Positions 7,924-47,319 of a stretch of DNA of 64,000 bases are shown here, one piece after another. Numbering within the stretch: the first letter of the stretch is position 1; each line of letters begins with the position of its first letter. The notes beneath the pieces are model-generated. The model was given only the letters and a program-made list of their open reading frames with translations. It was not told where the DNA came from and searched no databases. The position numbers and the translations under genes were made by a program. The DNA comes from Candidatus Desulfaltia sp. (GTDB taxonomy: Bacteria > Acidobacteriota > Aminicenantia > Aminicenantales > UBA8522), in NCBI GenBank assembly GCA_035528895.1, contig DATKXS010000157.1:1843-65842 (forward strand). Reading direction: 5' to 3'.

Positions 7924-9873
7924 ATGCAGCATCGGAACCGCGGTTTTTCCATCACCCAAACAAAGATGAGCGCCCTAATCTTAGGTCTCATTATCAGCCT
8001 TTCGTTCTCTTTTCCCGGCTGGAGCCAGGAAAAAACCAAGGAAAAGGAAGTCGACAAAAAGGCCCAAGAGACCAAAATCACAGAAGAGATCATCGTTGTC
8101 GGCCGGGCGCCGCGCGATCTTCCCGTGGCCACGGTCACAACGATCATGGTGACGCAGATCGACCAGCGCCGGCCCCTGGACCTGGCCGAAGCTATCAGGT
8201 ACGCCCCGGGCGTCATGGTGACCTTCGGCGACAAAGACACGTACACCCTCAAACTGCGGGGCATGGACGCCAAACGCATCGCCCTGCTCCTGGACGGCGT
8301 TCCCGAGGTTGAGCCTTACTACAGCACCTTCGACCTGAAAACGGTCACGGCCGCGGGGCTCGACTCGCTCCAGATCACCAAAGGCCCTTCTTCGGTCCTC
8401 TATGGTCCTAACACGCTGGGCGGCATCGTTAACGTCATCACCCGCCGGCCGGGCCCGGAGCCGCGCTTGGCGCTGACCGGCTCCTACGGCGAGCATTCCA
8501 CCCGGGGCATCATCCTCGACGGCGGCGCGCAGTGGAAGAAGTTCGCCCTGGCGGGGAGCGCCTCCTACCAGGATTCGAACCGTTTCGTTTATCCCGACGA
8601 GTCCGGCGAAAATGTCTCCCGGGCCAACAGCGACTATGAGCGGTTCAACCTGAACGCCAAACTTTACTACACGCCGAGCGACCGGACCGAGATCATGGTC
8701 AACGGCGGGATCTACCGCTCGAACTACGGCATGCCCGCCGCCCTGTCCGTGCAGAGGGCTCGCTACTGGAGGTTTAAGAACTGGGACCGCACCTCGTTCA
8801 ACGCCGGCGGATTCACCTCCCTGGGCGAGCGCTCCACGCTCCGGTTCCGGGCGTTCTACATCGGCTATCAGAACACCCTTAACCAGTGGAGGGACGCGGC
8901 GATGACGGTCCGACAGTTCGAGAGCACGTTCGACAACGAAGTATACGGCGCCTTCGGGCTGGCGGACTTGGCGGCCGGCGACGGGAACGCCCTCAAGCTG
9001 AGCCTTTACTTCCAGAAAGATATCGCCAGGTCTCAGGATGACGTCGGGCTGTCCTGGGATGAGTTTGACCAGTCCACCATGGCGGCGGGTCTGGAAGACC
9101 ATTATGACCTCGGCGACCGCTGGAAGCTCATCGGCGGCTTGAGCCTGGACTATATCGCCAAGTACTCCGGCGGAAGCACGACCAAGCTCAACCCGTTGAT
9201 CGGAATCAAGTTCTCCCCCGCCGAATATCTCGACCTCCATGCTTCGGCCTCCCTCAAGTCCAAGTTCCCCTCGATGCGTTCGATGTACTCGACAACAAGC
9301 GGCAACCCCGACCTCGTCTCTGAGCAGGGGACCTGTTTCGAACTGGGGGGGTCTTACAATCGGGGAATACTCGTCAGCGGGGCGATTTTCGCCTATGAGT
9401 TCAAGAACTTAATCGACAGCGTCCGCCTCGCCGACGGATCGCGCCGCTACTGGAACATCGGCCGGGCCCACATCAACGGAGCTGAGCTCCAGGTCCAGAA
9501 AGACTGGCGGCGGGTGAGCCTCCTGGCCAACTACACTTACCTCGACAACCGTAACGAAAGCGACGACCGGCCACTCGATGCCCTTTCCGATCACTCCCTG
9601 AACTTCGACGTCACGCTGAGGCCCGTCGACCGACTCCGCCTGACGGCTCTCGGGCTCTATGGGTCCAAGTCCCACTGGTTCGATTCCACAACGAGCGAAG
9701 TCCTCGAAATTCCTGCCTACTTCAGCCTGGATGCCGTGGCCGCTTACGACCTCCGGTTCTGCGAGGTCTTCGTTAAGGCGACCAATATCTTCAACGCCGA
9801 AGTCTATACCGAGCCCGGCTTTCCCTGGAGGGGCAGCTACTTCGAGGTCGGGGTCCGCCTGCCGATATTATAA
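7924..9873 (+). CDS. TonB-dependent outer membrane receptor
   Basis: AAGGAGG RBS, signal peptide, plug-domain motifs (DLAEAIRYAPGV, GMDAKRIALLLDGVP) and a beta-barrel with alternating aromatic residues toward the C-terminus. Confidence 0.85.
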   Translation: MQHRNRGFSITQTKMSALILGLIISLSFSFPGWSQEKTKEKEVDKKAQETKITEEIIVVGRAPRDLPVATVTTIMVTQIDQRRPLDLAEAIRYAPGVMVTFGDKDTYTLKLRGMDAKRIALLLDGVPEVEPYYSTFDLKTVTAAGLDSLQITKGPSSVLYGPNTLGGIVNVITRRPGPEPRLALTGSYGEHSTRGIILDGGAQWKKFALAGSASYQDSNRFVYPDESGENVSRANSDYERFNLNAKLYYTPSDRTEIMVNGGIYRSNYGMPAALSVQRARYWRFKNWDRTSFNAGGFTSLGERSTLRFRAFYIGYQNTLNQWRDAAMTVRQFESTFDNEVYGAFGLADLAAGDGNALKLSLYFQKDIARSQDDVGLSWDEFDQSTMAAGLEDHYDLGDRWKLIGGLSLDYIAKYSGGSTTKLNPLIGIKFSPAEYLDLHASASLKSKFPSMRSMYSTTSGNPDLVSEQGTCFELGGSYNRGILVSGAIFAYEFKNLIDSVRLADGSRRYWNIGRAHINGAELQVQKDWRRVSLLANYTYLDNRNESDDRPLDALSDHSLNFDVTLRPVDRLRLTALGLYGSKSHWFDSTTSEVLEIPAYFSLDAVAAYDLRFCEVFVKATNIFNAEVYTEPGFPWRGSYFEVGVRLPIL

Positions 9874-9990: not shown

Positions 9991-10464
9991 TTATCGGACC
10001 ATGATCTCTCCGCCAATTTCAGGCAGGGGCTTCTTGTTATTGGGGAAAACGAGAAGGCGGTAGGTGAGCTTGGCCCCGGGCTCGATCTTCGGGGGAGGGG
10101 AGGCAGAAGGGACGGTTTGCAGCAGCAGTCTTTCCGTTTTGCCGGGTTTTATCTCGCCGTAATCCCGGTCGATGCGGGCGATCTCTGCAGCGTCGAGCTC
10201 GATGGTCAGCCGGAAGTGTGTCTTGGCGATCGGCAATCGTCCGGAATTCTCGTACTCGACGAGAAATGCCGGCGGAAACTGCGGAACGGTCTTGACAACA
10301 GCGGCGCGGGCGCCCCTCAGGATCTCCTTGTCGATGCTCTTCCCGTGCCTCCAGTCGAGATAGATGCTTATCATCTGGGCGAGGATGACGAGGGAAGCGA
10401 CCGCGAGGAAAGTGACCTCAACGACTCTCTTGAGCTTGGCCGTCCCTTTTCGTTCTTCAAACAA
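9991..10464 (-). CDS. hypothetical membrane-anchored protein (single N-terminal TM)
   Basis: ORF with the hydrophobic segment VVEVTFLAVASLVILAQMISIYL. No recognisable domain. Confidence 0.4.
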   Translation of the reverse strand: MFEERKGTAKLKRVVEVTFLAVASLVILAQMISIYLDWRHGKSIDKEILRGARAAVVKTVPQFPPAFLVEYENSGRLPIAKTHFRLTIELDAAEIARIDRDYGEIKPGKTERLLLQTVPSASPPPKIEPGAKLTYRLLVFPNNKKPLPEIGGEIMVR

Positions 10465-10705: not shown

Positions 10706-10945
10706 ATGACGGTTGCTACTGTCTCATCAAAAAGCCAAATTACTCTTCCCGCAGCGGCCTGCCGGACTGTCGGCATCAAGCCTCGCGACCGAGTCCTGAT
10801 CGAAGTCAAAGAAGGGGAGATCGTAGTTCGGCCGGCCCCGGATATCATGAGTTTCGAAGGTTTCCTGGGCAAAGCTCTTCCCCGTGAAAAGGAGAAGGAG
10901 GCTATGGCCGGGTTCATCATGGAAGAGCGAAAAAAGCACGAATGA
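10706..10945 (+). CDS. vapB: AbrB/MazE/SpoVT-type antitoxin VapB
   Basis: N-terminus MTVATVSSKSQITLPAAACRTVGIKPRDRVLIEV fits the swapped-hairpin AbrB-like fold. Its stop overlaps the PIN gene start (ATGA). Confidence 0.85.
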   Translation: MTVATVSSKSQITLPAAACRTVGIKPRDRVLIEVKEGEIVVRPAPDIMSFEGFLGKALPREKEKEAMAGFIMEERKKHE

Positions 10946-11355
10946 GCACCTGGTTTGTCGACGCCAATGTTTTTCTCCGGTTTTTCACCGTCGATGACCA
11001 GGATCAGCATGGACGGGCCGCCCTCCTCATCTCCAGAGCATCTAAGGGCGAGATCCGGCTCGTTTGTGGTCCCCCGGTGCTCTTTGAGCTTTCCTGGACG
11101 CTGCGGGCAGCTTATAAAGTCTCCAGAGAAAAAGTCTTGGAAGTTCTCAGCGCCATTTATTCGATGTCCGGTCTTGTCATGACCGATGCCCATCTCGTGG
11201 AGACGGCCTTGACCCTTGCTGACACCGCCGGCGTAGAGTTCCCCGATGCCTATATCGCCGCCGGCGCCTTAGCCGCAGAGTGCGACGGCGTTGCCACCTT
11301 CAATCGAAAAGATTTTGCCCGGATGAAGATCAAGCTGGCCGATTTTGACGATTAA
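10942..11355 (+). CDS. vapC: PIN-domain ribonuclease toxin VapC
   Basis: A conserved PIN acidic residue sits near the N-terminus (FVDANVF). The ~137 aa size and translational coupling to the upstream antitoxin also fit. Confidence 0.85.
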   Translation: MSTWFVDANVFLRFFTVDDQDQHGRAALLISRASKGEIRLVCGPPVLFELSWTLRAAYKVSREKVLEVLSAIYSMSGLVMTDAHLVETALTLADTAGVEFPDAYIAAGALAAECDGVATFNRKDFARMKIKLADFDD

Positions 11356-11487
11356 ACGCGTCGGCCGTCGCGGACGACAACCTTGCCGTTCTTGATGACG
11401 TGGCGGATGGGGTTCCAGCCAAGCTGCAGGACAAAGAGCGTCGAGCCGACTATCGAGCTTCCGGGGTGGAAATCCGAATAGAAAATA
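11352..11487 (-). pseudogene. decayed 3'-terminal fragment of a hutI-like amidohydrolase gene (duplicate of the 13961-14275 region with a ~165-nt internal deletion)
   Basis: Translation ...[36 protein letters not shown] parallels the C-terminus of the 13961..15241 protein. The nucleotide segments 11364-11425 and 11426-11487 are ~85% identical to 13983-14046 and 14213-14275. Confidence 0.7.
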
Positions 11488-11584
11488 CCGAGACCGAATG
11501 GTTTGATTCTCCTCCCTTGCGCGAAGATTTGTTTTTCCTTAATATGTATCAGGCCGATAGAATTGTGCGATGAAGGAGAAGAAA

Positions 11585-12664
11585 ATGAAAAAACGAAACT
11601 GGCTGATGCTGCTGTCGGTCTGTCTGCTGCTGGCCGGTTGGAGCGTGATTCAGGCTTCGGCCGATGAAAAAACACCGCCGCCGCTCACGCAGGTCAACGG
11701 ACAGCAGCTGGGTCCGGAACGGCTTGGCCCCCTGCCGCCCGTGGTGGCTCCGCCCAATAACCCGCCATCGAGCGCCAAAATTCATCTGGGTAAGTTGCTC
11801 TATTTTGATACCCGTCTCTCCGCCGACAACACGGTCAGTTGTGCCACCTGCCATGACCCGGCCATGGGCTGGTCCGATGCCGGCCCCACCAGCAAGGGTA
11901 TCCGCGGCCAGATGGGTGGCCGACGGTCCCCTCCGGTTTCCAATGCCGCCTACAATCCGCTGCAATTCTGGGATGGCCGAGCACCCTCGCTCGAGGAACA
12001 AGCCAAGGGCCCGATCCAGAATCCGATCGAGATGGGGAACACGCATGAGGCGATGATCCGCACCGTCGACCAAATCCCCGGCTATGTCGAGGAATTCAAG
12101 AGAGTTTATGGCGAAGGGCCCATGACTGTCCAGCAGGTGGCGGATGCCATCGCCGCCTTCGAGCGTACGGTTGTCACTACGGACTCACGGTTCGACCGCT
12201 ATGCGCGCGGCGAGCACGATGCCCTGACCAAGCTGGAGAAACAGGGGCTGGAGATCTTCAACGGCAAAGGACACTGCACGGCCTGCCACTGGGGCCCGAA
12301 CTTCAGCGACGGCCGTTTCCATAACCTTGGTGTGCCGCCAACGGATCCCAAGAATCCTGATTTAGGGCGCTATGTCGTGACGAACAACCCGCGCGACATG
12401 GGCGCCTTCAAGACGCCTACTGTCCGCGACGCGGCTCTGCGCCCTCCCTACTTACATGACGGCTCAGAAAAAACCCTGGAATCGCTGCTTGAATTCTATA
12501 ACCGCGGCGGCAGCAAGGATCCCAACCTCGATCCGCTGATGGTGCCTCTGGGCCTGAGCAAGCTGGAGAAAAAGGCCCTGGTAGCTTTCATCCAGGCCTT
12601 GAACAGCCTCAACCCGGAAGTCGCTGCTGTCAATCCGATTCTGCCGGACGAACTGCCGAAGTGA
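11585..12664 (+). CDS. ccpA: di-heme cytochrome c peroxidase (CcpA/MauG family), periplasmic
   Basis: Signal peptide, two CxxCH motifs (CATCHDP, CTACHWGPNF) about 145 aa apart and the W/FDGRAPSLEEQA motif. AGGAG RBS before the ATG at 11585. Confidence 0.85.
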   Translation: MKKRNWLMLLSVCLLLAGWSVIQASADEKTPPPLTQVNGQQLGPERLGPLPPVVAPPNNPPSSAKIHLGKLLYFDTRLSADNTVSCATCHDPAMGWSDAGPTSKGIRGQMGGRRSPPVSNAAYNPLQFWDGRAPSLEEQAKGPIQNPIEMGNTHEAMIRTVDQIPGYVEEFKRVYGEGPMTVQQVADAIAAFERTVVTTDSRFDRYARGEHDALTKLEKQGLEIFNGKGHCTACHWGPNFSDGRFHNLGVPPTDPKNPDLGRYVVTNNPRDMGAFKTPTVRDAALRPPYLHDGSEKTLESLLEFYNRGGSKDPNLDPLMVPLGLSKLEKKALVAFIQALNSLNPEVAAVNPILPDELPK

Positions 12665-12674
12665 GGAGGAGACT

Positions 12675-13934
12675 ATGAAAAAAACGTTAACTCTCCTTTT
12701 AATCGGCGCTGCAGCGCTTCTTTTCTTCGCTCAGACCCTGTCCGCCATTCCGGCCTTTGCGCGAAAGTACGGCTTCAACTGCAACATGTGCCATGTGGCC
12801 TTTCCCAAATTGAATGATTTCGGCCAGCGTTTCCGCGACAACGGTTACCAGATCCCCGGCCAGGCCGGCCTGGAGAAGACAATCTTCGAGACGGCCATCC
12901 CCTTCGCTGTCCGGACCACGACTGGCTATTCCTCGTACAATAACGGCCTTGATACAGCCGCCGGATTTCACCTCTTCGGACTGGACCTGCTCGCGGCCGG
13001 AGTTCTCCACAAGAACATTTCGTTCCTTTTTGTTTACACGCCGCGCATCGACGAGCCGGCGGCCGATTTTTTAGGCGCCGGCAACGGCAACAACCCCGCA
13101 CAATTAGCGGCCATCGAGTCGGCCAACCTGGTCTTCAGCAACCTAATCCAGGATAAGCTCAACCTGCGCGTCGGCCGCTTCGAGCCGGGCTATCAGCTGC
13201 TCAGTTCCAAGCGCCTTTACTATCTCCTCCAGTCTTACGAAATATACGGCTTCGTCCCCGGCGGGAATGGGTTCGATTTTTCCGCCAATCACATCGGAAT
13301 CGAAGCCACCGGTCGCTTCAGGCACGGTTTCAAGTACGGGCTGGGATTTATCAATGGCAACGCCGGCGACCCCGACAACAACAGGTTCAAGGACCTCTAT
13401 TTTGTCCTGTCCAAGACCCTTGGACCCGGCGAAGGCCAGTCGGCCGGGCAGCGCTTCGGCCTCTTCGGCTATCTCGGTTGGCAGCCGACCGTTTACACGG
13501 GCTCCAGCGTCTCTCCCTTGGGCGATGTCAGCGGCAAAGAGAACAAGAGCTTCTACCGCTGGGGCGGCGACCTCAGCCTCAACTGGAAGACCTTTAACCT
13601 GCAGACTGTGGCTTTCCGCGGGGTGGACAATAAGGCCTTCAATGACCTCAACCCGGCCAAGGACTATTCGTTTTGGGGTGGAGCCGTCCAGCTCGATTGG
13701 GCCGGCCTGGCCAACAACCGCCTCGTGGCGTCGCTGATGTACAACTGGGTGCGTCCGCCCGGCGAGGAGAGCATTAGCCGATTGAGCTGCTACTCGGGGC
13801 TTGTGCGCTACTATCTAGGCAGCTGGACGGCGGTGAATGTCGCCCTGCACGCCGAATATACCCATCGTGTGGTCGGCGCCGACAATCCGTTCAAGGACGA
13901 TCTGTTTACCCTGCTGCTCGATTTTGATTTTTAG
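12675..13934 (+). CDS. outer-membrane fused monoheme cytochrome-porin candidate (Cyc2-like)
   Basis: AGGAGG RBS. Signal peptide MKKTLTLLLIGAAALLFFAQTLSA, then PAFARKYGFNCNMCH with a single CxxCH ~13 aa into the mature protein. A ~380 aa Gly/Tyr/aromatic-rich region with alternating hydrophobic residues follows, and the C-terminus ends in F (LLLDFDF), as in OM beta-barrels. Confidence 0.55.
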   Translation: MKKTLTLLLIGAAALLFFAQTLSAIPAFARKYGFNCNMCHVAFPKLNDFGQRFRDNGYQIPGQAGLEKTIFETAIPFAVRTTTGYSSYNNGLDTAAGFHLFGLDLLAAGVLHKNISFLFVYTPRIDEPAADFLGAGNGNNPAQLAAIESANLVFSNLIQDKLNLRVGRFEPGYQLLSSKRLYYLLQSYEIYGFVPGGNGFDFSANHIGIEATGRFRHGFKYGLGFINGNAGDPDNNRFKDLYFVLSKTLGPGEGQSAGQRFGLFGYLGWQPTVYTGSSVSPLGDVSGKENKSFYRWGGDLSLNWKTFNLQTVAFRGVDNKAFNDLNPAKDYSFWGGAVQLDWAGLANNRLVASLMYNWVRPPGEESISRLSCYSGLVRYYLGSWTAVNVALHAEYTHRVVGADNPFKDDLFTLLLDFDF

Positions 13935-13960: not shown

Positions 13961-15241
13961 TTAAAAAGAAGAATTTCGTTTTCCGTCGCGGACGACGACC
14001 CGGCCGTTCTTGATGACGTGACGGATGGGGTTCCAGCCGAGCTCGTAGACTAGAGACGCATATTCGGGAACGTCGCAGAGCAGCATGTCCATCTTTTTTC
14101 CGACCTCGAGGCTGCCGATGCTGTCGTGTCGGCGCAGCGCAAAGGCCGCGTTGGCCGTTACCGCGTTGAGCGCTTCCTCGATGCTCATCTTCAAGAGATA
14201 CACGCCGAGCTGCATCACAAAGAGCATCGAGCCGATCATCGAGCTCCCGGGGTTGAAATCCGAGGCTAGGTTAAGGGCGGCGCCGGCATCGATGAGCCTT
14301 CGTGCCGGCGCCTTTTTTTCGAGCATCAGGAAAAAGGACACAGACGGCAGGAGGGTGGCCGCTGTTTCGCTCCGGGAAAGGACCCGGATTCCCTTTTCCG
14401 TGATGCTGATCAGATGGTCGGCCGAGGCTGCCCCGACCTCGGCCGCCAACTCTGCCCCTCCCAGGGCAGAGAATTCGTCGGCGTGGATCCTGATCTTGAA
14501 CCCGGCCCGCTTGGCCGCTTCGGCCAGCCGCCTGGTTTCTTCCACCGAAAACACACCCTTTTCGCAGAAGACATCGAAGAACTCGGCCAGATCCCGGCGG
14601 CGCACTTCAGGCATGATCTTCTTGATGAGGAGGTCGATGTAAGCGCTCTTCCGGGTCTTGTACTCCTTCGGGATATCGTGAGCGCCCATGAAAGTGGAAA
14701 CGATGTCCACCGGATGATGTCGAGCGGCCTCTTTCAGCACCTCGAGCTGCTTGATCTCGTCCTTGAGGTTCAAACCGTATCCGCTCTTGGCCTCGACCGT
14801 CGTCGCGCCGTGCAGCATCATCCGGTCGAGCCGCGCCAGGCACAGTGAGAGGAGGTCTTTTTTGGAAGCCCGGCGCGTCGCTGCGACCGTCGTTTGGATC
14901 CCCATCCCTTTCTTTGCCAGTTGCTGGTAGGTATATCCCCGCAGCCGCAGCCGGAATTCCTCGACCCGGTTCCCGGCGAAGGGGAGATGGGTATGGGAAT
15001 CGACGAACCCGGGCAGTCCGACCATCCCGGTCCCATCTAAGTGCACCGCCGAGCGTTCCGGTCGGACCTTGGCCCTGAAGTCCCTTTCCTTTCCGATGAA
15101 GACGATCCGGCCCCTGGAGGAGGCAATCCAGGCTTTATCCACCGGCCCGGCATCCTGCAGGGCGTTCTCCCTTTTCGGGATCGGTCCCCGGCAGGTGACG
15201 AGCCGGCGGCAGCCCTGGACGACGAGGTCAGCCGAGGTCAT
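13961..15241 (-). CDS. hutI: imidazolonepropionase-like amidohydrolase (HutI family)
   Basis: The [13 protein letters not shown] metal-binding motif and the overall pattern match HutI. Its start overlaps the ftsZ stop by 14 nt. Confidence 0.75.
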
Positions 15242-16442
15242 TCGGGTGTTTTCTCAGCCCGGAATGTTTGCTCCGCCGGATGAAGGTCGGAGTCTCATAA
15301 GGCTCATACTGCTTCTCCCAGGCCGGCGGCTCCCAGAGAGGCGCTTTCCCGCCCTTCGGTTCGAACAGGTAGGTCGGCGTATCCGAATCAACCTGGAAAG
15401 GGGGAGGGGTTTGCCGCAACGGCCGGGGCAACTCTGCTTCCACCGCGCCCTCTTTCTCTTTGACCGTCTCGAACCCGGTGGCGATGACCGTCACCTTGAC
15501 CATCTCCTTCATCGAATTGTCGATGACCGTGCCGAAGATAATGTTGGCCTCGGGATGGGCCATCCGATGGATGAGCTGCGACGACTTGGAGACTTCGTGG
15601 AGGGTCAAATCCTTCCCGCCCGTGATGTTGATGAGCACACCCTTGGCCCCCTCGATCGAAGTGTCGACGAGCAGCGGGCTGGAGATGGCTTTCTGGGCCG
15701 CGTCCATGGCCCGGTTCTCGCCCGAAGCGATCCCGGTCCCCATGAAGGCCATGCCCATCCCCTTCATGATGGACTTGACGTCGGCGAAGTCGAGGTTGAT
15801 GAGCCCCGGCTTGGTGATGAGGTCGCTGATACCCTGGACCGCCTGCCTCAAGATATCGTCGGCCAGCTTGAAGGCGTCCTGGATGGAGGTATCGAGGTTG
15901 ACGGTCTGGAGAAGCCTCTCGTTGGGGATGGCGATGACCGTGTCCACGGCGCCCTTCAGTTCTTTGAGCCCTTCCTCGGCCTGCTTGGCCCTGACTCGGC
16001 CTTCGAACTCGAAGGGCAGGGTGACGATGGCGATGGCCAGGATGTCCATCTCCGAAGCCAGGTTGGCCAGGATCGGTGTGGCGCCCGTTCCCGTTCCGCC
16101 GCCCAGGCCGGTCGTCAGGAAGACCATGTCGGCGCCCTGGATGAGCCCGATCAGTCTCTCGGTATCCTCGACGGCCGCCTGCTTTCCGGTCTCGGGCCGC
16201 CCGCCGGAGCCGAGTCCCTTGGTGATCTTGGCGCCGATCTGGAGCTTGGCCTTGGCCCGGTTGTTGTTCAGGGCTTGGACGTCGGTGTTCACGGCGATGA
16301 ACTCGACGCCTTCGATCCCCGCCTCGATCATCCGGTTGACGGCGTTGCCGCCGCCGCCGCCGATGCCGAGGACCCTGATCTTGGCACCCATGGTGTCATC
16401 GACCAGATGAAACTTCAGTTTGCTGCTTGACTCGTCGTTCAT
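15228..16442 (-). CDS. ftsZ: cell division protein FtsZ
   Basis: Tubulin signature [18 protein letters not shown] and the C-terminal peptide ETPTFIRR. Confidence 0.97.
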
Positions 16443-16460
16443 TTTGCCTCCTCTCCTTAC

Positions 16461-17681
16461 TTATTCCTTGAGCCAATCGCGCATCTTGGCCCAGAGTCCT
16501 TTCTTTCTATCTCTAGCTGCGCCATGTTCTTGCCATTGGCCGAACCCGTAAAGGATCAGGCCGACGGCCGTGGCGTAGTCGGGTGTGCTGACCCGGTCGA
16601 TCAGGCCGCTGACGCCCGCCGGGTCGCCGCGACGCACCGGCAGGTCGAAAATCTCTTCGGCGACCTCCTCCAGGCCCTCCAGCAGGGCCGTGCCGCCGGT
16701 GATGACGATGCCCGAGTTGAGGGACTTTTCGTAGCCCATCCGCCTTATGTCGCCGTCCACGAGGCGGAAGATCTCCTCGGCCCGGGGCTGGATAATGTCG
16801 GACAGGATCTGCCTGGACAGGATCCGCGGTTTCCGGCCTTTGCCGACCGAGGGGACCTCGATCGTCTCCTGCTCATCGACCGTGGGAACGGCGACACAGC
16901 CGAACTTTTTCTTGATCTTCTCGGCTTCGGGGATCGGTGTCCGCAGGCCGACGGCGATGTCGTTGGTGAAATTGTCGCCGCCGATGGGGATAATCGACGT
17001 GTACCAGAGGCTGCCGCGTTCGAAGATGGCCACCTCGGTCGTCCCGGCGCCGATGTCGATGAGGCCGACGCCCAGCTCTTTCTCGTCGTGGGTTAGAACA
17101 GCCGCGGCGGTCGCGATCTGGTTGAGGACGACCTGCTCGATCTCGATCTCGGCCCGCTCGACACAGGTCCTCAGGTTCTGGACCGAGGTGATAGCCGAGG
17201 TGATGATGTGGACATTGACCTCGAGCTTGATGCCGCTCATCCCCAGCGGCGCCTTGATCCCGTCCTGCTCGTCAACCACGAATTCCTGGGGGATGACGTG
17301 GATGATGTCCCTGTCGGGAGGGATAGAGACCGCCTTGGACTGGTCGATGACCCGGCGGATGTCCTCGCGGGTGATCTCCCGGTTCTTGCCGGAAACGGCG
17401 ATGACGCCGCGGCTGTTGAAGCTCTTGATGTGGGCGCCGGAGATGCCGACGAAGGCGGAGTCGATCTCGACACCCGCCATGAGCTCGGCCTCTTCCTGGG
17501 CCTTCTTGATGGCCGCCGTCGTGGCCTCCAGGTTGACGACCACTCCCTTGCGCAGCCCCTTGGACTCGGCCGTCCCGATGCCGATCACCTCGACCTTGCG
17601 GTCCTCGGTGATCTCACCGATGATGGCGGCGACCTTCTTGGTGCCGATATCCAGCCCGACGACGTAGCTGTTCTTGGGCAT
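16461..17681 (-). CDS. ftsA: cell division protein FtsA
   Basis: Actin-like ATPase motifs (VGLDIGTKKV, DIGAGTTEVAIF). Position upstream of ftsZ. Confidence 0.95.
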   Translation of the reverse strand: MPKNSYVVGLDIGTKKVAAIIGEITEDRKVEVIGIGTAESKGLRKGVVVNLEATTAAIKKAQEEAELMAGVEIDSAFVGISGAHIKSFNSRGVIAVSGKNREITREDIRRVIDQSKAVSIPPDRDIIHVIPQEFVVDEQDGIKAPLGMSGIKLEVNVHIITSAITSVQNLRTCVERAEIEIEQVVLNQIATAAAVLTHDEKELGVGLIDIGAGTTEVAIFERGSLWYTSIIPIGGDNFTNDIAVGLRTPIPEAEKIKKKFGCVAVPTVDEQETIEVPSVGKGRKPRILSRQILSDIIQPRAEEIFRLVDGDIRRMGYEKSLNSGIVITGGTALLEGLEEVAEEIFDLPVRRGDPAGVSGLIDRVSTPDYATAVGLILYGFGQWQEHGAARDRKKGLWAKMRDWLKE

Positions 17682-18553
17682 TAGTTCACCTCCTCCTGGG
17701 TGTTGGGAATGGCCGCCAGCTCCAGCGCCGGGAGCGGCTTGAAAATGATGCGATCGTCAAACCGCAGGTCCACGTACTCGAGCGGTCCGTTCTGACCCTC
17801 CATCTCTTCCAAGTAGGAGCGGATAAAAGAGAGCCTTTCCGAGAAGCGCTCGTCGCCGAGGATAAAGCGGGTCGTCAGTCCCCGCAGGAAAGCGCTGACG
17901 CAGTGGTTCTCGCTCAGGTCCAGCGCTTCCAGCTCCGGGCGTTGCTCCGGCGTCAGAGCGCTCAGGCATCGCCAGGCCAGGGCGATCTTCTCCCGGTAGC
18001 GGTTCTGAAAGAACGACCTGTCGAGAAGCAGCGGGAGGTTGACGTCTTCCCGCGCCGCCAGACTCTCCAGGCCGACGCCCTCTTCATCGATCATCAGGAA
18101 ACTCCCTCCGATCTTCAGCAGAGCCACCGGCTCTCTCTCCGTCAGCTCCACCTTCAGGGAGGACGGGAAGACTTTGCGCAGCCGCGCTTCCTTGACCCAG
18201 CGGTGCGACTCGAGCCGGTCCTGGAGGGCTCTGATATCGAGAAGCAGCAGGTTGCCGAACTTCGAAGAGTCGAGGAGCGCCCGGATGTCCCGGCCGACAA
18301 AATCGCGCCGGCAGACGACCTCGATCTTCTTGACCGCGAAATCGTCGCAGCTGACGAGGTAGAGGTATCCCTTTGTCAGGCCGAAAAAGAAGCCGGCGAG
18401 AACGACGAAAAAGAGGACGATGTGTCTCGACCGGACGGTCAGCTTCCGCTGGACTTTCTTGACCGGCGCCTTGGCCCGGCTGCGCTTGAATTCAAGCGGC
18501 TCCCCGTAGGCGGCGAGGGCGCGGTGCTTGAGCGAGGCGTTGAGGATGGCCAT
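17681..18553 (-). CDS. ftsQ: cell division protein FtsQ/DivIB
   Basis: Single TM helix followed by a POTRA-like region. Position between murC and ftsA. Shares a 1-nt overlap with ftsA. Confidence 0.85.
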   Translation of the reverse strand: MAILNASLKHRALAAYGEPLEFKRSRAKAPVKKVQRKLTVRSRHIVLFFVVLAGFFFGLTKGYLYLVSCDDFAVKKIEVVCRRDFVGRDIRALLDSSKFGNLLLLDIRALQDRLESHRWVKEARLRKVFPSSLKVELTEREPVALLKIGGSFLMIDEEGVGLESLAAREDVNLPLLLDRSFFQNRYREKIALAWRCLSALTPEQRPELEALDLSENHCVSAFLRGLTTRFILGDERFSERLSFIRSYLEEMEGQNGPLEYVDLRFDDRIIFKPLPALELAAIPNTQEEVN

Positions 18554-46542: not shown

Positions 46543-47298
46543 CTATTTGGCCTTCGCTTCGGTCACTTCGGCTTCAGTCGAGGTTTCGTCGGTCTTCTCC
46601 CGCCAGAAGAGGATGCGGCCGCAGTTTTCGCAGAGGATGAGCTTGCGGGTGGAGAGCAGTTCGTTCAGGACCTGCGGCCGGATGCGCACGTGGCACAAGT
46701 CGCAGAAATCGTCCCTGACGGGGGAAAGGACGATGCCGCCCTTCTTGCGAGAGATATTGAGATAAAGATCAACCTGCGCGGCAGGTATCGCGGGCAGGAG
46801 ATCGGCTTTGCCTCGACCGAGCAGCTGAACTCTGTCTTCCGCTTCCTTCTTCTTTTGGAAGATAGCCTTCTTCTCCCGGGATAGAGTCTCCTGGGTTTCG
46901 GCGAGCTTCTGGTTGGCCTCCTTGATATCCTTCTGGATGTCGTCCTCCAGGAGCATTTCGGCGATGAACCCTTCCTCGAGGCGATCCACTCTCTTTTCGG
47001 ATTCTTCGATCTCCTTGAGGAGGGCCGTATATTCCTTGTTGGTCTTGACCTCGTTCAGCTGGCGCTTGTATTTCCCGATATGGGCCTTGATATCCTTGAC
47101 CTCGGTCTCGAGCTCGCGTCTCTTTTTCTGGCTGGCGGTCATCTTCTCCTTGGCAGCGGCCGCGATGAGGCTGCTTTCCGCGATCTTCTTGTCGATGTTT
47201 TCGATCTGGGGAGGGATACCTTCAAGGAAGAGAGAAAGCTGCCGGATCTCCATGTCCAATTGCTGGAGCTGGATCAGCTTCTCGAAATCGATTTCCAC
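46543..47298 (-). CDS. COG1579-type zinc-ribbon coiled-coil protein
   Basis: Long coiled-coil N-terminus and C-terminal CxxC...CxxC (CDLCHVRI...CENCGRIL). Confidence 0.75.
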   Translation of the reverse strand: MEIDFEKLIQLQQLDMEIRQLSLFLEGIPPQIENIDKKIAESSLIAAAAKEKMTASQKKRRELETEVKDIKAHIGKYKRQLNEVKTNKEYTALLKEIEESEKRVDRLEEGFIAEMLLEDDIQKDIKEANQKLAETQETLSREKKAIFQKKKEAEDRVQLLGRGKADLLPAIPAAQVDLYLNISRKKGGIVLSPVRDDFCDLCHVRIRPQVLNELLSTRKLILCENCGRILFWREKTDETSTEAEVTEAKAK

Positions 47299-47319
47299 AT
47301 CTCTTCCTCGAAATCAACA

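Follow-up and report, generated by a model that had tools for sequence, protein, structure and literature searches.

Cyc2 proteins, such as those of Acidithiobacillus ferrooxidans and Mariprofundus (Cyc2 PV-1), are outer-membrane porins fused to a small monoheme cytochrome. They are recognized by the motif AxPxFAR[Q/K][T/Y], whose Arg stands five residues before a CxxCH heme site, by PxL from the fourth residue after that site, and by a length of at least 365 aa that includes a fused 16-strand OprO/OprP-like porin (Keffer 2021, PMC8406198). The gene, detected with FeGenie, is widely used as a marker of neutrophilic microbial iron oxidation. FeGenie-based studies report cyc2 in MAGs of Aminicenantes and Krumholzibacteria, which have been proposed as iron oxidisers solely on this marker (PMC7005843, PMC7914226).

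The second relevant family is that of di-heme enzymes with the CCP_MauG fold. Canonical bCCPs (CcpA of Pseudomonas, Nitrosomonas, Geobacter and Shewanella; MacA) are periplasmic proteins with soluble cytochrome or cupredoxin donors, and are defined by Met-His ligation of the electron-transfer (E/HP) heme (PMC6405878). MauG, MbnH and BthA instead have Tyr at the ligand position of the six-coordinate heme and lack the distal His (PMC6405878, PMC11892367). MauG acts on pre-methylamine dehydrogenase (PMC11892367) and MbnH on MbnP (PMC11951088). BthA is likewise Tyr-His ligated, yet turns over H2O2 catalytically if given an external electron donor (PMC6405878).

In the 64-kb window analysed here (the whole stretch of DNA, at its full length), a predicted member of each family is encoded by adjacent genes. 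The features of the locus are:

11365..11477, minus strand: hutI relic, a decayed 3' end (segments 92% and 87% identical to intact hutI)
11517..11545, plus strand: putative promoter of the pair (TTGCGC, 17-nt spacer, TAATAT; from sequence inspection)
11585..12664, plus strand: predicted MauG-type di-heme enzyme, CCP_MauG fold, 359 aa from ATG 11585 (PF03150, NCBIfam, PDB alignments, conservation in 74 partners)
12665..12669, plus strand: GGAGG ribosome-binding site, between the stop of the first gene and ATG 12675 (intergenic gap 10 nt)
12675..13934, plus strand: predicted Cyc2-family fused monoheme cytochrome-porin, 419 aa (motif, fold, AlphaFold model)
13961..15241, minus strand: intact hutI, imidazolonepropionase, context only (NCBIfam TIGR01224 1e-131, above cutoff)

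Both open reading frames of the pair, their 10-nt gap and a ribosome-binding site before each were borne out. The di-heme frame can be read from 11570 or 11585 to its stop TGA at 12662–12664; ATG 11585 is the likely start, because AAGGAG lies at 11573–11578 and because a relative of 79% identity (L001) has the same ribosome-binding site and ATG without the upstream in-frame ATG. The placement of GGAGG within the gap is consistent with translational coupling of the two genes, and in more distant pairs the genes overlap by 4 nt instead. Scans for sigma-70 promoters and terminators around the pair gave no significant match, the candidate promoter falling under the scan threshold. L001 has TTGCGC...TATAAT at the matching place, and other relatives carry TTGACA-N17-TATAxx there. 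By eye, promoters could be recognized in the upstream regions, whereas an operator of the Fur, PerR or OxyR type common to all loci could not.

The 419-aa porin product begins with MKKTLTLLLIGAAALLFFAQTLSA, followed after the predicted signal peptide cleavage by IPAFARKYGFNCNMCH, and ends in ...LLLDFDF. It comprises a signal peptide (aa 1–24), a small helical heme domain (aa 25–75) and a 16-strand beta-barrel (aa 77–418) with C-terminal Phe. There is exactly one CxxCH, the CNMCH at residues 36–40 (nt 12780–12794), and the surrounding sequence, AIPAFARKY-GFN-CNMCH-VAF-PKL, agrees with the Cyc2 motif and its spacing (PMC8406198); the length, the modelled barrel and the aromatic C-terminal residue also agree with known Cyc2 proteins. 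The barrel was taken from an AlphaFold model built on a diverse alignment of 94 sequences, an earlier model from 30 close homologs (pLDDT 55) having been discarded. Structural neighbours of the model were 16-strand porins, OprP/OprO being closest, and no MtrB-type barrel was among the matches. Homologs likewise have a single CxxCH, and nearly all N-terminally complete relatives have an AxPxFAR-type motif. The first-pass annotation had proposed this Cyc2-type architecture (Sec signal peptide, single heme motif, beta region with terminal Phe) and expected a barrel of 16–18 strands.

Sequence searches of Pfam, NCBIfam and PDB with the porin gave no match, and ten distant representatives looked up by cluster name were all entered as 'hypothetical protein'. 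When a diverse porin profile was used for a second homology search, the query's own clade dominated the matches; the family profile matched FARQTG-type homologs of Ralstonia and Methylocystis at 85–94 bits. On the strength of the published motif, the fold and these homologs, we assign the 12675–13934 product to the Cyc2 family as a fused cytochrome-porin of the putative outer-membrane iron-oxidase type. It differs in several respects from other Cyc2 proteins. Its 419 aa compare with ∼440–550 aa in the more distant homologs examined, and its partnered subfamily has invariants of its own. Those in the heme domain are Met38 (of CNMCH), Gln51, Arg52 and Glu67; others, Tyr121-Thr-Pro123-Arg124 (YTPR 121–124), Gln143 and Ser155, are near predicted extracellular loop L2. 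No clade-specific Trp was found in comparison with other Cyc2 proteins. Instead of classical iron oxidisers, the subfamily has mostly anaerobic hosts: Acidobacteriota (Aminicenantes), the FCB group and other lineages. The concept of an outer-membrane barrel plus heme for trans-envelope electron transfer is shared with MtrCAB, MtoAB and PioAB, but those have a 26-strand barrel with separate decaheme cytochromes, against 16 strands and one fused heme in the model.

The upstream product matches PF03150 (Pfam, 1e-59), has a Sec signal peptide and contains two heme motifs, CATCH (aa 86–90, nt 11840–11854) and CTACH (aa 231–235, nt 12275–12289). Over its whole length the best PDB matches were canonical bCCPs (1iqc, 3hq9 and 3o5c, ∼1e-62), with Geobacter MacA (4aal) also among the best, and overall the canonical bCCPs scored higher (216 bits) than did MbnH (136 bits) and MauG (∼105 bits). 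With the bCCPs it shares two CxxCH motifs, inter-heme Trp129, catalytic Glu and Gln, and a predicted periplasmic location. The first-pass annotation had called it a CcpA-type peroxidase, a call that the heme ligands contradict. Tyr305 (nt 12497–12499) aligns to the Met ligand of 1iqc, 3hq9 and 3o5c, and its alignment to MauG Tyr294 (chain residues 264–303) and to the Tyr of MbnH 'IDIYSEGG' is gap-free; for the C-terminal segment the best PDB matches were MbnH and MauG. In addition, Ile106 replaces the distal His, which canonical enzymes carry in the loop above the peroxidatic heme (TSIGH...). Among 74 partner proteins from related loci, all 73 compared at the Met-ligand position have Tyr there and 72 of 74 have Ile for the distal His, while both hemes, Trp129 and the distal Gln139, Pro143 and Glu149 are invariant, so that the peroxide-binding pocket is retained.

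Because of the Tyr and Ile replacements, we class the partner by alignment as a periplasmic MauG-type (His/Tyr) di-heme enzyme, for which we predict five-coordination of the peroxide-binding heme and His/Tyr, rather than His/Met, ligation of the second heme. These substitutions would shift the expected mechanism from that of a plain peroxide scavenger to that of a MauG-type high-valent oxidant. The CCP_MauG fold, ligand Tyr, missing distal His, inter-heme Trp and Gln/Pro/Glu pocket are all as in MauG, MbnH and BthA. Orthology to MauG or MbnH was ruled out, since the scores on the NCBIfam models fell below cutoff (TIGR03791 MauG, 237.3 vs 443.85; TIGR04039 MbnH, 214 vs 362.85) and no mau or mbn gene context was found at the locus or in related loci. 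Unlike MauG, the enzyme has no Trp at the MauG Trp199 relay position.

We surveyed the gene neighbourhoods of related porins, as the first-pass annotation had proposed. The MauG-type gene was immediately upstream, on the same strand, in all 84 porin loci with room for it, an arrangement that its recurrence places far beyond chance. The pairing spans at least seven phyla, occurring in Aminicenantes, Krumholzibacteria, Bacteroidota, Ignavibacteriota, Zixibacteria, Calditrichota and others, always with a MauG-type gene; it persists at 33–40% porin identity and with differing flanks. Pairwise identities of the two proteins co-vary (r = 0.80). No other neighbour gene recurred across loci, large extra 'clusters' proving to be antisense shadow ORFs of the pair's own genes. 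Nor did any respiratory or other cytochrome gene recur with the pair across loci, and none was found within the 64-kb window. These data show what the two proteins are and how they are built, and that the pair, strictly conserved and co-varying, travels as a fixed unit across many phyla. Most carriers belong to anaerobic sediment lineages.

The partner gene is missing beside more distant Cyc2 homologs. An unpartnered Methylocystis homolog is followed by three di-heme c4 cytochromes, the classical layout of cyc2 plus periplasmic acceptor, whereas the partner in our clade is always the MauG-type enzyme, not Cyc1-type c4 cytochromes or respiratory genes. By positional analogy with the Methylocystis layout, the di-heme partner could be the acceptor. 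A conserved protein encoded beside the enzyme, here in 84 of 84 loci and in relatives at 33–40% identity, is also the rule for the MauG/MbnH/BthA class; what differs is its nature, here a predicted heme protein of the outer membrane in place of a soluble, Trp-rich one. The first-pass annotation did not recognize the pairing as a described system, and neither the partner nor the two-gene module is described in the literature that we searched. What is known is cyc2 in Aminicenantes; as far as that literature goes, the MauG-type partner and the module are new.

The reading that we favour, while holding it tentatively and at a little under an even chance, is that the two genes form one envelope module: once activated by peroxide, the di-heme enzyme would take up electrons that Fe(II), on entering the pore, supplies by way of the Cyc2 heme. 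Reaction with H2O2 would leave the enzyme in a high-valent, bis-Fe(IV)-like state, and electrons passed over a long range from the heme of the docked Cyc2 partner would reduce it again; Fe2+, or another small reductant in the pore, would then refill the Cyc2 heme. That the two proteins dock, which way the electrons run and what the outside reductant is are our inferences. The net result at the cell envelope could be described equally well as peroxide reduction that depends on Fe(II) or as Fe(II) oxidation driven by peroxide, and Fe2+ and H2O2 would be kept from the Fenton reaction. Enzyme-controlled, H2O2-dependent Fe(II) oxidation that avoids Fenton radicals is known from EfeUOB, with its DyP peroxidase EfeB, and from Dps-type ferroxidases; the chemistry is analogous, the families are unrelated and have no outer-membrane cytochrome-porin. 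Unlike those systems, the pair described here is accompanied by no permease or storage component. The scheme would need no respiratory chain and would suit the mostly anaerobic carriers. BthA, with its donor-dependent peroxide turnover, sets a precedent for it. Several points weigh against it. MauG and MbnH oxidise residues of a neighbour-encoded protein rather than acting as electron wires (PMC11892367, PMC11951088), and MauG-type enzymes are generally poor dye-linked peroxidases. The Fe(II) donor is drawn from homology to Cyc2 proteins that are ∼20–30% identical among themselves, and no operator of the Fur, PerR or OxyR type was established upstream. Finally, the module as drawn conserves no energy, so that its selective value as detoxification is conjecture.

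The main rival, modelled on the known activities of MauG and MbnH, is that the H2O2-using enzyme would oxidise one or more porin residues in a single maturation event, with no lasting electron path, giving a protein-derived cofactor or cross-link that the porin-cytochrome needs. The His/Tyr ligation (by alignment) and missing distal His are as in both enzymes, each of which has its substrate encoded beside it (PMC11892367, PMC11951088); strict adjacency in 84 of 84 loci and the clade-specific invariant residues, including heme-adjacent Met38 and Tyr121, also agree with such maturation. We nevertheless think it unlikely. Both known MauG-type reactions target Trp, and partnered porins have no clade-specific conserved Trp; Tyr121, under standard porin topology, would lie at the extracellular end of strand 3 in the model, away from a periplasmic enzyme; the tight coupling (10-nt gap or 4-nt overlap) weakly suggests equimolar partners; and scores on the MauG and MbnH equivalog models were below cutoff. 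With the clade residues clustered in the heme domain and no clade-specific Trp, heme-to-heme docking fits better than Trp modification. More doubtful still is peroxide-independent shuttling of electrons by the di-heme protein between the porin and an inner-membrane or periplasmic redox pool, whether inward, with Fe(II) oxidation feeding a respiratory chain, or toward the outside, where extracellular Fe(III) or humics would be reduced, a role comparable to the one proposed for Geobacter MacA. The MacA structure is among the best whole-protein matches, and the anaerobic sediment lineages that host the pair would be a plausible setting. Outward flow would be in keeping with the low potential of His/Tyr hemes. 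Iron-reduction genes accompany cyc2 in one Krumholzibacteria MAG (PMC7914226). Against this, invariance of Gln139, Pro143, Glu149 and the predicted five-coordinate P heme over at least seven phyla would be hard to explain if peroxide chemistry had been lost, and respiratory or other cytochrome genes neither recur with the pair nor occur in the 64-kb window.

Fe(II) need not be the electron source even if the enzyme does act through the porin heme: Mn(II), reduced humics or phenolics, or sulfur species in the pore might be oxidised instead. A bis-Fe(IV)-type oxidant would be far stronger than Fe(II) at neutral pH requires, and the invariant residues near predicted loop L2 (Tyr121-Thr-Pro123-Arg124, Gln143 and Ser155) could alter pore specificity. 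Cyc2-like proteins are also discussed for a manganese-oxidising lineage (PMC9040806). Experiments on Cyc2 members, however, show Fe(II) oxidation only (PMC8406198, PMC13647500), and our analysis yielded no sequence evidence for another substrate, which leaves this variant a slim prospect. It is very improbable that an ordinary CcpA-type peroxidase stands by chance beside a Cyc2 iron oxidase, or is loosely co-regulated with it. The whole-length matches to 1iqc, 3hq9 and 3o5c at ∼1e-62 would favour such an enzyme, but Met-His ligation and the distal His are both absent, the Tyr being invariant, and the adjacency is obligate (84 of 84 loci) and comes with translational coupling, co-variation of the two proteins and flanks that vary. 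The ligand analysis largely refutes this reading.

The pair itself lies between two copies of hutI sequence. Positions 11365–11425 are 92% identical to 13983–14043 and 11418–11477 are 87% identical to 14204–14263, both targets being inside intact hutI; ∼160 nt have been deleted between the two relic segments, and the C-terminus of the relic ORF matches that of hutI. Relic and intact gene constitute a direct repeat, whose left-hand copy, the relic, borders the inserted pair on that side. The 3' end of intact hutI, 26 nt from the stop of the cyc2-like gene, is the right-hand repeat copy. This duplication, which the first-pass annotation took to indicate mobility, is real, and it shows a local insertion or rearrangement. 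Mobility holds only in the sense of a cassette that is relocated and transferred horizontally into many contexts: no mobility genes accompany the pair, and hutI adjoins it in no other related locus.

The boldest reading of these results, to which we give somewhat less than even odds, is of a horizontally mobile two-gene module whose MauG-type high-valent enzyme would be connected with the cell exterior by way of Cyc2, and which would serve anaerobic sediment bacteria of many phyla as an Fe(II)-fuelled peroxide sink or as a peroxide-fuelled oxidant of pore substrates. The pair is small (2.4 kb) and self-contained, and is therefore directly testable by co-expression in E. coli. For enzymology, it adds to the MauG-type enzymes a subgroup that is new, very widespread and provided with an obvious partner; if the module works as proposed, the class would gain a fourth role of distinct mechanism, in which the redox partner is a heme protein. 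The locking of this Cyc2 clade to a MauG-type enzyme and the lack of recurrent respiratory genes point to envelope peroxide and iron chemistry rather than energy-conserving iron oxidation. Such a shift would alter the reading of cyc2 marker matches in anoxic, iron-rich habitats: if the proposal is true, a large share of the 'cyc2' matches in anoxic sediments, peat and digesters would not represent respiratory iron oxidation.

The first-pass annotation had placed a di-heme gene and a Cyc2-like porin gene 10 nt apart, each with a ribosome-binding site. Calling of open reading frames returned both, with AAGGAG at 11573–11578 ahead of the first and GGAGG between its TGA and the porin ATG at 12675. 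ATG 11585 is the best start of the di-heme gene, because the same ribosome-binding site and ATG occur in a 79%-identical relative (L001), with no in-frame ATG upstream. The features are as follows.

7924–9873 (+): TonB-dependent receptor (Plug and barrel)
9991–10464 (−): 157-aa ORF, a single hydrophobic helix predicted at the N-terminus; no Pfam match
10706–10945 (+): MazE/AbrB-type antitoxin (PF04014 at 2e-8)
10942–11355 (+): PIN-domain toxin (PF01850 at 3e-12)
11517–11545 (+): candidate promoter of the pair, TTGCGC-N17-TAATAT; same element in L001
11585–12664 (+): di-heme enzyme gene, TGA stop at 12662–12664 (from ribosome-binding site and L001 comparison)
12665–12669 (+): ribosome-binding site of the porin gene, directly after the di-heme TGA and inside the 10-nt gap
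12675–13934 (+): porin gene
13961–15241 (−): intact hutI (TIGR01224 at 1e-131)

The porin product, of 419 aa, has a typical Sec signal peptide (…AQTLSA/IPAF…), one CxxCH (CNMCH, residues 36–40) and a C-terminal …LLLDFDF. Searches of Pfam, NCBIfam and PDB sequences with it gave no match, as expected, since to our knowledge those libraries hold no curated Cyc2 model. Keffer et al. (2021) recognize Cyc2 by AxPxFAR[Q/K][T/Y] with its Arg five residues before CxxCH, PxL from the fourth residue after CxxCH, a fused 16-strand porin structurally like OprO/OprP, and a length of at least 365 aa (PMC8406198). The N-terminus, AIPAFARKY-GFN-CNMCH-VAF-PKL, matches that motif exactly, and the length lies above the minimum. 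An exhaustive profile search with the porin family collected 2,876 representatives at E ≤ 1e-3; in the best 150 of these, nearly every N-terminally complete homolog carries a single CxxCH and the same motif. An AlphaFold model built on a 94-sequence diverse alignment predicts a 16-strand beta-barrel (pLDDT 89.1, pTM 0.85) with a small helical heme domain at residues about 25–60; with close homologs alone, pLDDT reached only 55. The family profile also scored 85–94 bits against an ORF on a Ralstonia megaplasmid and a Methylocystis protein encoded on a plasmid, both with the variant FARQTG…CxxCH…PEL, and Ralstonia is among the genera with Cyc2 (PMC8406198). The Ralstonia syzygii ORF (L099; NZ_CP046730.1, 3620–5266) is full-length and is unannotated in the PLSDB gene table. 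By published motif, predicted fold and the motifs of its homologs, the porin is a Cyc2-family member. FeGenie calls of cyc2 have been published for Aminicenantes and Krumholzibacteria MAGs (PMC7005843, PMC7914226), lineages that also harbour this porin family in our genome scan, so the porin by itself is one more member of a known family.

The upstream gene had been called a CcpA-type peroxidase, which its ligand sites contradict. Whole-length searches with the product gave PF03150 (1e-59) and canonical bCCP structures (about 1e-62). In PDB alignments, the Met axial ligand of the Nitrosomonas, Geobacter and Shewanella CCPs (…ETMGR, …AVMGS, …NTMAD) is replaced by Tyr (…EFYNRGG), and their distal His (TSIGHKWQ) by Ile (TSKGIRGQ). 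When the C-terminal segment alone is compared with PDB, MbnH (6e1c) and MauG rank first, and in an ungapped alignment the Tyr falls on MauG residue 294, the known Tyr ligand. Met-His ligation belongs to bCCPs and Tyr-His ligation to MauG-type enzymes (PMC6405878). Among 74 partner proteins from related loci, the Tyr is present in 73/73 and the Ile in 72/74, with no variation at either CxxCH motif, at the inter-heme Trp or at the Gln, Pro and Glu of the pocket. The top-scoring NCBIfam models, MauG at 237 bits and MbnH at 214 bits, stayed far below their equivalog cutoffs; the protein is not an ortholog of either. Given the Tyr ligand site, the missing distal His and these scores, the partner is, judged by sequence, a distinct MauG-type subgroup; we regard the ordinary CcpA reading as very improbable.

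Scanning one genome per GTDB species yielded 80 loci whose porin is 54% identical or more, in MAGs of Aminicenantes/Acidobacteriota, Bacteroidota, Ignavibacteriota, Zixibacteria, Krumholzibacteria, Calditrichota, Eisenbacteria and Sedimentisphaerales. Seven further contigs brought the total to 87, three of which begin at a contig edge. In all loci with upstream sequence (84/84), the partner is the next gene upstream and shares the strand of the porin gene. A Tyr-type partner also precedes porins just 33–40% identical (P0125, P0126, P0127, P0133), overlapping the porin gene by 4 nt in two of them, and two Cyc2-family proteins at about 30% identity (P0142, P0151; 448–457 aa) have no MauG-type neighbour. 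The pairing is obligate and clade-specific, and the gene spacing is consistent with translational coupling. Pairwise identities of partner and porin are correlated across 2,278 locus pairs (r = 0.80); of the two, the enzyme is the better conserved (mean identity 73% versus 61%).

At L094 (1343–6269; porin 34% identical) the last base of a P-type cation ATPase gene is the first base of the partner gene, which itself runs 4 nt into the porin gene. The arrangement points to a three-gene operon that, in this lineage, connects the pair with the transport of metal cations. Unlike the window pair, the Methylocystis sp. MJC1 homolog (L098; NZ_CP107559.1, 3824–7594; 552 aa, labelled 'hypothetical protein') has three di-heme c4-type cytochromes downstream, the classical cyc2 + cyc1 layout. 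That cluster sits on a 354-kb plasmid with an IS66 transposase nearby; a methanotroph's classical cyc2 + cyc1-like cluster is thus plasmid-borne.

In the related loci compared, the pair has no further gene family as a recurrent neighbour, and an 86%-identical relative has a different genomic context. Inspection of upstream regions found a putative TTGACA-N17-TATAxx promoter of its own directly 5' of the pair in many loci. From obligate adjacency, non-recurring flanks and these promoters, the unit spans about 2.4 kb and consists of promoter, enzyme and porin.

The hutI fragment beside the pair was confirmed: 11365–11425 is 92% identical to 13983–14043, and 11418–11477 is 87% identical to 14204–14263. 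About 160 nt between the two matching segments are deleted in the relic, with the junction at a shared GCC(A/G)AGCT microhomology. The pair thus lies between a decayed (11365–11477) and an intact (13983–14263) hutI 3' end, a sign that DNA was inserted or recombined here; the divergence of the copies suggests either that the duplication is old or that the site recombined with donor DNA bearing its own hutI end. No relative was found with hutI next to the pair. The earlier conclusion that the pair is mobile holds only for its varied contexts and cross-phylum spread, but no mobility genes are present at the pair in the window. The unit changes position within genomes and has apparently passed from one phylum to another. 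Across L008–L087, from MAGs assigned to at least seven phyla, partners are at least 62% and porins at least 51% identical, far above expectation for vertical descent, which implies that the cassette has moved between phyla more than once. Some MAG labels (Bacteriovoracaceae, Eubacteriales, Bryobacterales) belong to short contigs with Aminicenantes-like sequences and may be binning errors.

The antitoxin and toxin genes overlap by 4 nt directly left of the hutI relic, the end of which overlaps their stop codon. The TonB-dependent receptor, 1.7 kb upstream of the pair, has siderophore/B12 receptor models as its best NCBIfam matches, all sub-cutoff; it is not conserved beside the pair in any relative and so is probably unrelated. 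Directly after hutI begins a cell-division cluster (15228–18553, minus strand, on to about 29262), named by eye as FtsZ (GGGTGTG motif), FtsA and FtsQ, then long mur/fts-like minus-strand ORFs; the cassette therefore borders a core region that is highly conserved. The only other window ORF of at least 150 aa with a CxxCH (46546–47313, minus strand) has one, which may be chance.

In a non-exhaustive coverage of the literature on Cyc2 with cytochrome c peroxidase, MauG or diheme, we found no description of the pairing, in agreement with the first-pass annotation; neither it nor a porin-linked MauG-type subgroup appears in the Cyc2 phylogeny and similarity-network papers or the bCCP_MauG superfamily network paper covered.

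What the pair does we infer from sequence and context. Targeting signals place the enzyme in the periplasm and the porin in the outer membrane, and the enzyme sequence retains the peroxide pocket along with the Tyr ligand site. The two proteins would dock, and electrons would pass between the enzyme and the heme of the porin. The two MauG-type enzymes whose function is known each oxidise the protein encoded beside them, and the partner could likewise be a maturase that oxidises the porin. We consider this unlikely: partnered porins lack a clade-specific Trp target, and the residues invariant solely in them cluster in the heme domain (Met38, in CNMCH, Gln51, Arg52, Glu67). Such a pattern agrees better with a heme-domain surface dedicated to docking than with a Trp target of the MauG/MbnH kind. 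A peroxide-independent electron shuttle seems to us distinctly unlikely, and peroxide-driven oxidation of a non-iron substrate slightly more so.

BthA is a Tyr-His enzyme, yet its turnover of H2O2 is catalytic once an electron donor is supplied (PMC6405878). We tentatively prefer a model in which H2O2 would raise the enzyme to a high-valent state, the Cyc2 heme would re-reduce it, and Fe2+ in the pore would refill that heme. The pair would then act as an envelope Fe(II):H2O2 oxidoreductase that forestalls Fenton chemistry.
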